A stretch of 9,735 bases of DNA from a virus (taxonomy: Duplodnaviria; Heunggongvirae; Uroviricota; Caudoviricetes), in the IMG/VR virus record IMGVR_UViG_2671180460_000011, positions 1-9,735 of that record. The stretch is one strand, 5' to 3'. Of this stretch, positions 2,544-7,840 are shown in pieces. Position numbers and translations under genes: made by a program. The first letter of the stretch is position 1, and every line of letters begins with the position of its first letter. The notes beneath the pieces are model-generated. The model had not been told where the DNA came from, did not search any database, and saw only the letters and a list, made by a program, of their open reading frames with translations.

Positions 2544-2951
2544 ATGAATCACAAAAATAAAGCGCTACTGGAACGACTGGAAACCCTGAAAAACGAAAAG
2601 CCACACCAGAAGCTTTTGCTGGTTTTTCCGGGCAAACCACAGGTTGAAATCAGCATTGACTACCACGAATTACACAGAACGTTCGCTGACCTGATGGCAT
2701 TTAAATCAAAGCTTCAGAATGGCGAAGATTTGAAAAATGTTACCCTGCATCCTGATGATGAATACGGTCATTTTTGTCGAGATGGTGTCAAAGAAACGAT
2801 TGGAATGATTTTAGAACCAATATACGGCGTTGCGCTCCGTTTCCCCGCCAAAGAAATCTTTGAGCTTTATCGACAAATTTTAAGCAGTGACAACATGGTT
2901 ATTGAGGTCGGAAATGTGCCAGAGAAAATCTCCGGCACGGGAGTTAAATAA
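2544..2951 (+). CDS. Hypothetical protein (135 aa), AT-rich moron-like gene
   Basis: Complete ORF, ATG 2544 with AAAGAGG at 2527-2533. No family recognised. Visibly AT-richer than flanking phage genes. Confidence 0.55.
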   Translation: MNHKNKALLERLETLKNEKPHQKLLLVFPGKPQVEISIDYHELHRTFADLMAFKSKLQNGEDLKNVTLHPDDEYGHFCRDGVKETIGMILEPIYGVALRFPAKEIFELYRQILSSDNMVIEVGNVPEKISGTGVK

Positions 2952-3134
2952 TCACTCAGGGAAAGTCCATGTACTTGCCTGAGGATATTTTTCCAACGTG
3001 AGCTTACGCACTTCGTGCATAAGCTTACGAATGGTATTTGATGGCTCTCCTTTATTCGGAGGATTAACCGGCGCTTTCTCTAATACAGAAATTGCCGCAT
3101 TTAGCGCATCAATAACCTTTTTATCATAGGACAT
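2952..3134 (-). CDS. Hypothetical small protein (60 aa), convergent with and abutting the 135-aa gene
   Basis: ATG at 3132-3134 (rc) with AAGGA 7 nt upstream on the minus strand. Its stop (2952-2954) is immediately adjacent to the stop of the + gene (2949-2951). No family recognised. Confidence 0.4.
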   Translation of the reverse strand: MSYDKKVIDALNAAISVLEKAPVNPPNKGEPSNTIRKLMHEVRKLTLEKYPQASTWTFPE

Positions 3135-3935: not shown

Positions 3936-4178
3936 ATGGACAAAGAATATAAAGCTCTTGTCAACAAAGCACTTGAGCGTTTTTATTTTCGCTTAAACAC
4001 ATCAGGGGCCCAGGCAGAACACGCAGCCCATGATTCATTAGCGAGGGCAATCAGAAGCCTTTATGACGTGGCCTTTTACGCTGACGATTTGGATGCGATT
4101 AACGAACTTTCCGAACTCGTCTGCGCTGCAGAATGCGGGGATCGCATTGAACCATATAAACTGGGGAATATCGCATGA
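3936..4178 (+). CDS. Hypothetical phage early protein (80 aa)
   Basis: ATG 3936 with AAGGG at 3925-3929. Its stop TGA 4176-4178 overlaps the ATG 4175 of the next peptide gene (ATGA). Confidence 0.5.
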   Translation: MDKEYKALVNKALERFYFRLNTSGAQAEHAAHDSLARAIRSLYDVAFYADDLDAINELSELVCAAECGDRIEPYKLGNIA

Positions 4179-4312
4179 GTATATTTATGTCATGGATTGT
4201 TCTGATTATTTCGGTGGCCTGCGCAATCGGGATTATGCGAATTATTCATTCAGTGAAAAAGATTGAGCGTTTTTTTCTGACGAATAACAGCACAAATAAA
4301 ACACCAGATTAA
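4175..4312 (+). CDS. Small single-pass membrane peptide (45 aa), MSIFMSWIVLIISVACAIGIMRIIHSVKKIERFFLTNNSTNKTPD; absent from the ORF track
   Basis: Hand-translated codon by codon. ATG 4175 with GGGGA at 4163-4167 and ATGA overlap with the upstream stop. A ~19-residue hydrophobic stretch is followed by a basic tail (RIIHSVKKIER). Stop TAA 4310-4312. Confidence 0.4.
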   Translation: MSIFMSWIVLIISVACAIGIMRIIHSVKKIERFFLTNNSTNKTPD

Positions 4313-4380
4313 ATAAGAAAACGTGAAAACCATCCGAATTAGCGGAGGCATTCACACACGTAAATAATGGAGATAGAAAA

Positions 4381-4791
4381 ATGAACGCAAAAGAAAAAGG
4401 CATTGTAACTGCGCTAAAAAATATATCGAAGACCGCAAACAGAGCCATTCAGGATGCAACAAATGCAGGAATGATTGGGCCTGCCACCACAGCCATGATG
4501 ATAGCAAGAGCAACCGCCGAAGCAGCCGAAATCATCGAAAAACAGGATGCTGAACTAACGGTTCTCAAAACACAACCAACCACCAGACTGAATTTATCTG
4601 ACATTGGACACCTTATTCATATTATTGGCTCGGAGCTACAGCAATACATCATTATCGCCGAATTGCAGGACAAATACCTGATTACCCCTTACCCCATAAG
4701 AGAGTCAGAAGTTCTGACAAATCTCCGCCTGATAGAACGCACTCAGGTCGCATTCATTGATGGCACGCAACGTGCCGTATTTAACGCATAG
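4381..4791 (+). CDS. Hypothetical protein (136 aa), Ala/Thr-rich N-terminal half; AT-rich gene with its own RBS
   Basis: ATG 4381 with GGAGA at 4369-4373, preceded by a 68-bp AT-rich spacer. No family recognised. Confidence 0.55.
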   Translation: MNAKEKGIVTALKNISKTANRAIQDATNAGMIGPATTAMMIARATAEAAEIIEKQDAELTVLKTQPTTRLNLSDIGHLIHIIGSELQQYIIIAELQDKYLITPYPIRESEVLTNLRLIERTQVAFIDGTQRAVFNA

Positions 4792-4814: not shown

Positions 4815-5018
4815 ATGGCAATTAAGCATTTTCCCGTCGTTCGCTTTACCTCCAGAGGGCGCGAATACGAGGTCGACGAACGCCTGATTACCACTATCGA
4901 CAAACACCGTTCAGAAAAAGATGCACATCACATCTATCTCACTGACGGCACTTACTTCTGCGCCACCAACGTGGTGCAGGTGAATCTTATCAGACTGGTA
5001 CAGGAGTCACGCAGATGA
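4815..5018 (+). CDS. Hypothetical small protein (67 aa)
   Basis: ATG 4815 (MAIKHFPVVRF...) with AAGAGAG upstream. The ORF track start at 4797 is TTG. Stop TGA 5016-5018 overlaps the next start (ATGA). Confidence 0.5.
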   Translation: MAIKHFPVVRFTSRGREYEVDERLITTIDKHRSEKDAHHIYLTDGTYFCATNVVQVNLIRLVQESRR

Positions 5019-5567: not shown

Positions 5568-5771
5568 ATGAACAAAAAGACCTGGTTTCGCGCATACATG
5601 TGGGCGCTGGTATGCGTCCTCGTCTCTCTCATTCTGTATGCAGGACTACTCCCCCGAATGATTTCATCAGACAGCTCCTTCCTGGTATTGCTGGGCATTT
5701 TCATTGCCATGCTGTACCCGGCAGGCGTTGTTCGCCTTTTCAGTAAGTACATCAAGGAAATCAAACAATGA
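5568..5771 (+). CDS. Small integral membrane protein, two predicted TM helices (67 aa)
   Basis: ATG 5568 with AAAGGA at 5555-5560. Two hydrophobic segments (WALVCVLVSLILYAGLL and FLVLLGIFIAMLYPAGVV) separated by a short polar loop. Stop TGA 5769-5771 overlaps the ATG 5768 of the SPFH gene. Confidence 0.6.
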   Translation: MNKKTWFRAYMWALVCVLVSLILYAGLLPRMISSDSSFLVLLGIFIAMLYPAGVVRLFSKYIKEIKQ

Positions 5772-6598
5772 AGAAATTCAAACTCTTTCAGATTCTCCCG
5801 CTTTTTGCCGCCATCCTGCTGGTTGGTTGCGATCGCGTTGAGCCAGGTAATGTGGGCATCAAAGTCAACAAACTGGGCGACGACAAAGGCGTCGGCGAAG
5901 TGGTTGGCGTTGGCCGCTACTGGACTGGCTGGAATACCGAGGTTTACATCTTCCCGACCTTCAAACAAATGAAGACCTACGATGAGCCGTTCAGCTTCCA
6001 GATGAGTGACGGCACAACCATCGGCTATCACATCGGTGTGGCCTACAAGGTTGATCCATCCAAAGTTACTACAGTGTTTCAGACCTACCGCAAAGGCGTG
6101 GATGACATTACCGACACTGACCTGCGCCAGAAGATCGCCGATGCACTCAACCGACTGGCCAGCAAAATGACCACCGACAAATTTATCGACGGCGGGAAAT
6201 CTGAACTACTGGATGCAGCTCTTAAAGACATTCAGGAGGAAATGACACCCATCGGTATTCAGGTAATGAGCCTCTCATATGTGGGTAAGCCGGAGTACCC
6301 GTCAACCGTTATCGACAGCATTAATGCCAAAGTCACGGCAAACCAGAAAACCCTGCAACGCGAACAGGAAGTCAAGCAACGTGAAGCAGAAGCCAACATG
6401 TTGCGCGCAGAAGCTGCCGGACAGGCTGATGCCATTCGCACAAAAGCCCAGGCTGAAGCCGACGCCATTCGTTTGCGTGGTGAAGCTCTGCGCCAGAATC
6501 CCGGTGTTATGGAGCTGGAAGCGATTAACAAATGGAACGGCACGCTACCGCAATACATGACCAGTAACACCGCTGTTCCGTTTGTTCCGGTGAAGTAA
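5768..6598 (+). CDS. SPFH/band-7 (stomatin/HflK/HflC/prohibitin-like) domain lipoprotein, predicted inner-membrane anchored (276 aa)
   Basis: The N-terminus MKKFKLFQILPLFAAILLVGC-D has a signal peptide and lipobox LVGC (Cys21), with Asp at +2, the classical inner-membrane retention signal. The body has SPFH-like composition and a C-terminal Ala/Glu/Gln/Arg-rich coiled-coil (QREQEVKQREAEANMLRAEAAGQADAIRTKAQAEADAIRLRGEAL) typical of band-7 proteins. Confidence 0.8.
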   Translation: MKKFKLFQILPLFAAILLVGCDRVEPGNVGIKVNKLGDDKGVGEVVGVGRYWTGWNTEVYIFPTFKQMKTYDEPFSFQMSDGTTIGYHIGVAYKVDPSKVTTVFQTYRKGVDDITDTDLRQKIADALNRLASKMTTDKFIDGGKSELLDAALKDIQEEMTPIGIQVMSLSYVGKPEYPSTVIDSINAKVTANQKTLQREQEVKQREAEANMLRAEAAGQADAIRTKAQAEADAIRLRGEALRQNPGVMELEAINKWNGTLPQYMTSNTAVPFVPVK

Positions 6599-6812: not shown

Positions 6813-6951
6813 TCCATGTCACTGTCAGAAGATTAACCCATGTACACACAAAAAAACCGCTTGCCATGCCGTAATCAGTCAGGTTACATTTCCGCTGCAC
6901 CTCATAAAACGGGTGCCGGGTTTCGCAGCCTGCTGACTAGCAAAGCGCACA

Positions 6952-6971
6952 ACCGCGCCAGCGGTTTTTTT
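6952..6971 (+). terminator. Candidate Rho-independent terminator ending the long early operon
   Basis: ACCGC-GCCA-GCGGT hairpin (5-bp stem, 4-nt loop) immediately followed by T7 (6965-6971). The stem is short, so strength is uncertain. Confidence 0.45.
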
Positions 6972-7150
6972 GTGCGTACCGTATCGCCACGTCTTTTTCG
7001 CACACGAATTATGGTGGGGCGTATGGGGCCGACTTCGGTCGGGCCGGGTTCTTTGCTAGCCGGTACTGCGAACCTCGTACGTCTCGCCACCCACAGTTTC
7101 GCAGCTCTGGATGGTGAGTTTTCACAACTTACTAGCAAAGAGGCCACACC

Positions 7151-7378
7151 ATGGCAAACCGCAAACAGCGCGCATACGCTGCGCGTCGTCACATCCAGAC
7201 TGAAATCGATCGCAGACTCACCCGCGCTGCACACATCGCCTTTATCATGCAATCCAACACATTGCACAGACTCAACAGCACTATTTCAGCCGACTACTGC
7301 GCCGCTGTATTCAGCTATCTGGCGGAAGACCTCCTGTCTCTTCAGGATCTCATCCAGCAGCAAAACAAACTCCATTAA
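7151..7378 (+). CDS. Hypothetical phage protein (75 aa)
   Basis: ATG 7151 with AAGAGG at 7138-7143. No family recognised. Confidence 0.5.
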   Translation: MANRKQRAYAARRHIQTEIDRRLTRAAHIAFIMQSNTLHRLNSTISADYCAAVFSYLAEDLLSLQDLIQQQNKLH

Positions 7379-7450
7379 TTACGGTACCAGGTCTCTCCTG
7401 CACTTTGCGGCGGGAGGCCTGCGCACATCTTTAACAAAGCGAGGTGCAGC

Positions 7451-7840
7451 ATGATTGACCGTCATGACTTCGTAAAATGGGTGCGCACACAGGACACCCG
7501 TCTGGCTCCAAAACTTCAGGCAATGTTTGATCTCTATCTCCGTGCCCGTGCCAGCCAGGCACGCACCACAAAACCGGAGAACACAGACACCCTTTATTTC
7601 ACCGTGGACGACTGTTACCGCGTGGTCTTCACACCACACGGTCTGGCCCTGTACACCCTGACACCACGCAGCGACTCCCTGCTGGCGTATTACAACTCCC
7701 CGGCTTCTGTATTTGCAGCCATACTGGCGCATCGCACCGCTGGCGGGTGTGCATCGCTGAATGAATACACCGCTGAATTTAACCGCCTGTCCGCCCTCTT
7801 CTCGCAGGAGTGGCAGCGCGTGACGGGATACCAGCCATGA
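7451..7840 (+). CDS. Hypothetical phage protein (129 aa), translationally coupled to gene A
   Basis: ATG 7451 with GAGG at 7441-7444. Stop TGA 7838-7840 overlaps the ATG 7837 of A (ATGA). Confidence 0.55.
   Translation: MIDRHDFVKWVRTQDTRLAPKLQAMFDLYLRARASQARTTKPENTDTLYFTVDDCYRVVFTPHGLALYTLTPRSDSLLAYYNSPASVFAAILAHRTAGGCASLNEYTAEFNRLSALFSQEWQRVTGYQP

Follow-up and report, generated by a model that had tools for sequence, protein, structure and literature searches.

A conserved small membrane-peptide gene in the early operon of P2-like prophages of Escherichia coli

Is a reading frame of 45 codons a gene, and if it is, what might its product do? We ask this of positions 4175-4312, on the plus strand, of a stretch of viral DNA of 9,735 nucleotides, called here the window. 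The frame opens with ATG and reads MSIFMSWIVLIISVACAIGIMRIIHSVKKIERFFLTNNSTNKTPD. An initial annotation proposed that it encodes a membrane peptide, translationally coupled to the gene upstream, with the architecture of a Kil-like division inhibitor, a type I toxin, or a holin or antiholin.

A mechanical search finds 117 reading frames of at least 30 aa in the 9.7-kb window. The best 19-residue Kyte-Doolittle mean of our frame, 2.58 over residues 3-21, is the highest of the 117 and places the hydrophobic helix of about 19 residues that had been described; hydrophobicity alone nevertheless proves nothing, because an antisense frame reaches 2.56. Neither the size of the frame nor its hydrophobicity is above chance when taken alone: it is conservation that lifts 4175-4312 above chance.

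The prophage and its early operon

The window is the left end of a P2-like E. coli prophage of the P88 type (Xuanwuvirus, Peduoviridae), whose closest isolated phages, at 85-90% DNA identity, are Citrobacter phage Shae_phiSM, vB_EcoM-569R5 and P88. An integrase gene (544-1575) and the gene of an HTH, C-type repressor (1606-1971, with a Pfam match) lie on the minus strand; cox, also matched by Pfam, lies on the plus strand within 1975-2439. Between the repressor gene and cox, the plus strand carries the promoter-like site TTGACA-16-TAGATT (1900-1927; 10/12 matches). Calling it an early promoter rests on its position, because such sites are no more numerous in the region than chance would give: the position agrees with that of Pe in P2, and by analogy with Pe we take the site as the presumed source of the transcript carrying the peptide gene. 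Directly upstream of the peptide gene there is no promoter-like site.

The early operon, from cox to a gpA-type replication gene of which only the start is included at the right end of the window, has five ATGA junctions. After cox comes an inserted pair of genes without a family match (2544-3134), which P88 lacks; one of them, of 135 aa, is on the plus strand, and the other, of 60 aa, is on the minus strand, where it would meet early transcription head-on. The plus strand continues with a DUF4761 gene, the gene of a phrog_3800 protein, and the DUF4754 gene (3936-4178, 80 aa), a full-length match to Pfam PF15946 at E=2.8e-47. The DUF4754 protein is predicted by AF2 to form a three-helix bundle, with helices at residues 2-23, 25-48 and 52-67 and a pLDDT of 88.9; comparison of the model with the PDB by Foldseek gives nothing below E=1, and a PDB sequence search is also empty.

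The peptide gene (4175-4312) comes next, here as a 45-aa allele of a family whose norm is 37 or 41 aa. It is followed by a small hairpin, discussed below, and by a variable cassette gene of 136 aa (phrog_9338, 4381-4791, plus strand), which is also found in Shae_phiSM and 569R5 and is absent from P88, where a 67-aa gene is directly next. In the window, the 136-aa gene is followed in order by genes for a 67-aa protein, a MarR-type winged-helix protein and an Ead/Ea22-like protein.

Further along the plus strand, the gene of a 67-aa protein with hydrophobic stretches (5568-5771) is joined by an ATGA coupling to that of an SPFH/Band 7 protein (5768-6598; Pfam PF01145, E=1.8e-30), the N-terminus of which resembles that of a lipoprotein; in P88 the two are labelled 'membrane protein' and 'lipoprotein / serine protease'. 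This pair is a second membrane module of the early operon, and it is missing from divergent lineages that keep the peptide. Between this pair and the replication gene, Rfam finds matches to isrK (6897-6971, plus strand, 65.5 bits) and to C4 antisense RNA (7007-7094, plus strand, 79.9 bits), both within the mechanical frame 6840-7454 and just 5' of a 75-aa frame at 7151-7378. The matches suggest an anti-repressor module, P1/P7-type c4-ant-like or of the IsrK type, and suggest that the first part of 6840-7454 is non-coding.

The hairpin is a stem-loop of 5 bp, TCCGA-ATTA-GCGGA (4333-4346, within the context 4317-4360, plus strand), with its closing pair mismatched in the window copy. The consensus is TCCGC-N4-GCGGA, which runs into GGAGG. 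It is found about 20 nt 3' of the peptide stop in every lineage, whichever gene comes next; over 18 haplotypes 97.8% of its cells are paired, against 37-63% in slid controls, and two of its pairs show compensatory changes from C-G to U-A. It is not a canonical terminator, since it has no U-tract. Phages P2 and 186 carry a terminator at the equivalent place, after the first block of early genes.

Evidence for a conserved coding gene

Starting from the DUF4754 protein, we gathered 86 related loci, which together with the window make 87 P88-type copies. The frame is open in all 87, one copy being shortened to 30 aa. Over 65 distinct haplotypes, the diversity at the first, second and third codon positions of the peptide gene is 0.019, 0.015 and 0.072, the same pattern as in the neighbouring DUF4754 gene (0.027, 0.018 and 0.098); beyond codon 32 (4271-4312), and in intergenic DNA, the sequence is more variable and has no codon periodicity. 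The ratio pN/pS is 0.22 in the peptide frame, versus 1.5 and 1.1 in the other two.

The comparison can be carried beyond the P88 type. A profile search that covered 1.84 billion representative proteins matches this family only, including relatives of 41 aa, 54-68% identical, that belong to other P2-like prophages of E. coli, where the genes again run DUF4761-DUF4754-peptide, with the same ATGA. Taking four lineages two by two, we find a synonymous excess in the peptide frame in all six pairs (p = 3.5e-5 to 0.012), and in the other frames in none of the six. The 37 shared codons are aligned across lineages with zero indels, and the peptide remains 50-68% identical between lineages where DUF4754 is only 26-40% identical. 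Loss of the frame in homologous regions had been named beforehand as the observation to look for against the proposal; the frame is conserved both within and between lineages.

The junction with the upstream gene is equally constant. The ATG of the peptide (4175-4177) and the TGA of DUF4754 (4176-4178) overlap in an ATGA (4175-4178, plus strand) that is invariant in the 87 P88-type loci and is also present in the loci L091-L099. An SD-like GGGG (4163-4166, plus strand) stands 8 nt 5' of the ATG, within the last codons of DUF4754. Its duplex with the anti-SD has a moderate energy of -5.5 kcal/mol, in about the top 10% of the window's 15-mers; the other genes here range from -3.8 to -6.9. Divergent lineages have GAGGAG, GAGGTG or AAGGGG at the same distance, at -7.6 to -8.5, stronger than in the window; the purine run is retained across lineages although the DUF4754 residues that it overlaps differ. 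The frame, the overlap and the SD of the initial annotation are thus all present, in an architecture kept across lineages, and translation of the peptide is probably coupled to that of DUF4754 through the ATGA and the SD-like site.

The same junction is a place of exchange: recombination breakpoints fall exactly on the ATGA shared by DUF4754 and the peptide. In locus L096 (junction at 5001), a P88-type DUF4754 is joined to the 41-aa type of peptide, and several complete genomes (H99, H100, H106-H108) match from the junction onward only, at 94.6-99.5% identity. Since the mosaics break at the ATGA, and one type of peptide occurs with different types of DUF4754, the peptide is a separable module; a tightly co-evolving complex of the two proteins is therefore less likely.

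Taken together, the tests of frame, junction and selection support a true gene, carried by a P2-like prophage, for a small membrane peptide, and it is almost certain that 4175-4312 is protein-coding. That the region is non-coding, or conserved solely for some DNA or RNA element, is extremely improbable: frames of this size are common and the spurious antisense frame is nearly as hydrophobic, but purifying selection is specific to this frame within and between lineages, which keep it intact, without indels and with its start conserved.

Two other frames of the locus are not genes. The frame 4063-4266, already suspected of being spurious, overlaps, though in a different frame, the full-length Pfam match of DUF4754 and has in-frame stops in 73 of the 87 homologous loci: it should not be called. 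A mini-frame from GTG 4323 (MKTIRISGGIHTRK) is rejected because its start codon varies among GTG, ATG, CTG, GTA and ATT.

The gene is not new. The initial annotation called it unlisted, which holds for the list of frames that it worked from and fails for public records, which annotate it: gp07 of P88 as 'membrane protein', its counterpart in 569R5 as 'putative membrane protein', the PGAP entry (37 aa) as 'hypothetical protein', and the UniRef entry as 'Prophage membrane protein'. P88 gp07 (SF19_gp07, YP_009113050.1) is an orthologue, 94% identical to the window peptide over the first 34 residues, with RefSeq and UniRef equivalents WP_000021655.1, WP_000021656.1 and WP_161620296.1; the window peptide and the members in databases are 84-100% identical. 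Like the window copy, the members of the gp07 group belong to the early operon of P2-like prophages, directly after DUF4754 and overlapping it by ATGA; unlike it, they have 37 aa, ending in FTGE, FSDE or FTDK, the window copy owing its 45 aa to a deletion of one nucleotide.

A 465-bp stretch around the frame matches 1333 of 5426 complete E. coli genomes. The range of the family is otherwise narrow: E. coli, Shigella, Salmonella, E. albertii and one Citrobacter phage. A scan of species-representative genomes yields E. albertii and one 'Vagococcus' contig only. The contig (NZ_JBQPOM010000071.1, 'Vagococcus sp. WN89Y', 226 kb) has a peptide gene with 100% identity to the 37-aa form of E. coli, and its assembly is probably contaminated or mislabelled. 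Two kinds of database entries were set aside. Phage 503458 (NC_049341.1, our locus L087), considered as a divergent homologue, is a low-quality record with several frameshifts in the DUF4754 and peptide genes, which look like sequencing error rather than biology; and entries of 103-128 aa, which would be natural fusions of DUF4754 with the peptide, are frameshift or mis-start artefacts.

The peptide has no meaningful match in Pfam, PHROGs, NCBIfam, PADLOC or the sequences of the PDB. In Pfam, no family is reached at E<=0.01, and at E<=10 there are only YiaAB and PET117, both far below threshold. Our search of the literature found no paper mentioning DUF4754, the accession numbers of the peptide or its sequence.

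Frameshift alleles and shape of the peptide

The 45 aa of the window copy are a property of the allele. The usual product has 37 aa and ends in …KKIERFF[TS][GD]E; in divergent lineages it has 41 aa, four residues, most of them basic, coming after …FTG[DE]. The 37-aa frame is ancestral, since the divergent lineages retain the FTG[DE] end. Aligned with its nearest 37-aa relatives, the window copy has lost one nucleotide in a T7 run (4270-4276, plus strand), where TTTTTTCTCTG becomes TTTTTTTCTG. The deletion shifts the last three codons and adds eight more, in non-conserved DNA: the copy then reads FFLTNNSTNKTPD, without the family end F[TS][GD][ED], and in the ancestral frame translation would end at TAA 4285-4287. 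The shifted tail, LTNNSTNKTPD and its stop (4277-4312, plus strand), has high diversity and no codon periodicity. Of the claim of a 45-aa peptide, the frame thus stands, and the length is specific to the allele.

The frameshift allele is present in 4 of the 87 loci. Equivalent deletions arose independently on at least three other backgrounds (L010, L076 and L077), and indels in a nearby A run give further variants. The 45-aa form is a real allele rather than a reading error, since the exact protein is recorded from several isolates (it is found in NCBI on 9 contigs). Because tail frameshifts, with a few truncations, recur, the C-terminus may be under weak selection, or the gene may be decaying in resident prophages. 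For annotation, the length found here is to be read as that of a frameshift allele of a 37-aa protein.

Upstream of the frameshift, the peptide consists of two parts. Codons 3-24 (IFMSWIVLIISVACAIGIMRII; 4181-4246, plus strand) form a transmembrane helix, predicted from the Kyte-Doolittle profile and from the AF2 model; the latter is one continuous helix over residues 2-40, with a pLDDT above 90 for residues 1-20 and a weak tail. The membrane segment contains no charged or pore-lining residues. Codons 22-34 (RIIHSVKKIERFF; 4238-4276, plus strand) form a conserved, basic, amphipathic juxtamembrane tail, with a hydrophobic moment of 0.41-0.72 and a conserved hydrophobic stripe at residues 23/24, 27, 30 and 34. 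The basic C-terminal tail of the initial annotation thus survives as far as residue 34; the polar end of the 45-aa form is a product of the frameshift.

Across lineages, residues S6, W7, L10, A17, G19, I23, I24, I30 and F34 are invariant, and R22, K28 and E31 nearly so. A helical periodicity of conservation, such as a dedicated binding face would leave, is not significant in either data set (p = 0.09-0.18). The C-terminal flank has 5 K/R versus 2 D/E. There are 4-5 K/R on the C side of the helix and none on the N side: by the positive-inside rule, the N-terminus is thus predicted to be outside and the C-terminus inside, and this charge distribution makes us fairly confident of a single-pass, N-out/C-in topology in the inner membrane.

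Candidate functions

The reading that we favour, with somewhat better than even confidence as a whole, is that of a gene of the early operon, probably translated by coupling, whose product is an N-out/C-in membrane peptide modulating a partner in the membrane. Transcription would start at the early promoter postulated by analogy with Pe of P2, and translation would be coupled to that of DUF4754. Early in lytic growth, the peptide would insert into the inner membrane with about two residues in the periplasm, a helix over residues 3-24 or so, and the tail in the cytoplasm. The invariant residues of helix and tail would then bind a conserved membrane partner and modulate its activity.

Two parts of this reading can be weighed separately. 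That the peptide acts by binding or modulating another protein is a tentative choice, to which we give a little less than an even chance; that it does not form pores is probable. A partner-binder fits better than a pore-former because the helix has no charged residue, because residues are invariant, and because the peptide is better conserved than its neighbours. The peptide resembles known small-protein modulators of membrane proteins (AcrZ, MgtS, SidA and gp56) in having a single membrane helix, with residues that do not vary, and a short tail.

Which partner could it be? The most specific guess, and a speculative one, is a host protein of division or of the envelope, by analogy with 186 fil, SPO1 gp56 and SidA/DidA. 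Small single-pass membrane proteins that inhibit the divisome through FtsW, FtsN or FtsL form a recognised class (bioRxiv 10.1101/2020.02.06.938217; PMC4211646; PMC6051672). The early phage gene product SPO1 gp56 and the Caulobacter proteins SidA and DidA are short, have one helix and bind membrane proteins (bioRxiv 10.1101/2020.02.06.938217; PMC4211646); none has any sequence relation to the peptide, and the likeness is in working principle only.

In its strictest form, the guess becomes a doubtful one: a membrane-embedded inhibitor of cell division, blocking a late divisome protein in early lytic growth and filling the role of Fil in coliphage 186. Fil (NP_052282.1, 'cell division inhibitor') is the product of a small, non-essential gene that this P2-family phage carries in its early lytic operon. 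Its overexpression blocks cell division, and its gene holds the corresponding place between the switch and the replication genes; both it and the peptide gene lie in the early lytic operon, upstream of replication gene A. The peptide is also more conserved than its neighbours, as would be expected with a conserved host target. Against these points, which are matters of position and analogy, the peptide has no similarity to Fil or to any Kil family. Fil has 75 aa and, unlike the peptide, no N-terminal membrane helix. The likeness of IIRIVH to IMRIIH, which might pass for homology with Fil, is due to chance (hhalign probability 0.4%, 6 aligned columns). A comparison of DUF4754 with Dhr of 186 found nothing, and Orf78 of P2, tried as a counterpart, is not a membrane peptide. 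The more precise label of a Kil-like inhibitor finds no support in Pfam or PHROG, neither of which gives a Kil similarity.

T4 Imm is an early-expressed membrane protein that blocks the entry of DNA from a superinfecting phage. Could the peptide similarly exclude superinfecting phages, or block injection, at the inner membrane during lytic growth? Like Imm, it would be a small inner-membrane protein from an early phage gene, and location and time of expression would both fit; the gene also looks dispensable, being absent from P2 and 186. However, Imm is larger and no homology with it was found, nor any with known exclusion proteins, and PADLOC gives no match. Without a promoter of its own, the gene is probably silent in lysogens, where the exclusion genes old and tin of P2 are expressed. 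Exclusion is on these grounds unlikely.

We attach an equally low probability to the conjecture that the peptide is an anchor, its cytoplasmic tail binding the co-translated three-helix bundle of DUF4754 and holding it at the membrane. The invariant ATGA coupling would link the two syntheses, DUF4754 precedes the peptide in every context seen, and the tail has its conserved hydrophobic stripe. Natural mosaics, however, put different types of DUF4754 with the same type of peptide, with breakpoints at the junction; the unequal divergence of the two proteins, to 26-40% identity for DUF4754 and 50-68% for the peptide, is unlike that of a co-evolving pair; and the fusion proteins that databases seem to offer come from frameshifts.

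More improbable than these is a toxin-like peptide, of the kind of type I toxins, holins or antiholins, that depolarises or permeabilises the inner membrane. Being small, with a single, very hydrophobic helix and a tail that carries charges, the peptide is similar in size and hydrophobicity to the type I toxins Hok, Ldr, TisB, Ibs and ShoB, and Hok, too, is translated in coupling with an upstream frame that overlaps its own. However, the peptide gene is embedded through its ATGA in a multi-gene early operon in every locus and has no unit of its own. No Rfam RNA is recognised at the locus: the best match between 3900 and 4500, STnc540, scores 17 bits where the gathering threshold is 38, a novel RNA being possible. 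The sole antisense promoter-like site (4259-4232, 9/12 matches) is at chance level, as is the number of such sites. None of the Hok, Ldr, TisB, Ibs or holin families of Pfam and NCBIfam is matched, and no homology with ShoB was detected; the membrane helix lacks charged or pore-lining residues; the late lysis genes are far away; and an early loss of membrane potential would presumably harm the replication of the phage.

The proposal of a holin or antiholin fares no better. A helix followed by a charged cytoplasmic C-terminus is indeed found in the peptide, as in many small membrane proteins, which makes it a loose criterion; but no homology is detected, the gene belongs to the early operon from cox to A rather than to a lysis cassette, and there is no endolysin among the window proteins scanned. 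Of the initial annotation, the anatomy is borne out, and its three functional labels are left without backing.

We return to the peptide as modulator of a membrane partner, and to what it would mean. No new principle is shown by this gene. Yet small membrane proteins often escape notice or go without characterisation, and here is one clearly under selection, better conserved than its neighbours and part of a prophage region that 1333 of the 5426 genomes contain: it is a clearly defined candidate that could be put to a functional test at low cost. The boldest conjecture, a long shot, is that the peptide founds a family of small phage proteins that attach to a conserved inner-membrane machine of E. 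coli and shut it down early in lytic growth, the machine being perhaps a component of the divisome or of envelope synthesis, or a membrane-bound defence effector. If this were true, a host-takeover factor present in roughly one in four sequenced E. coli genomes would have been overlooked owing to its size.
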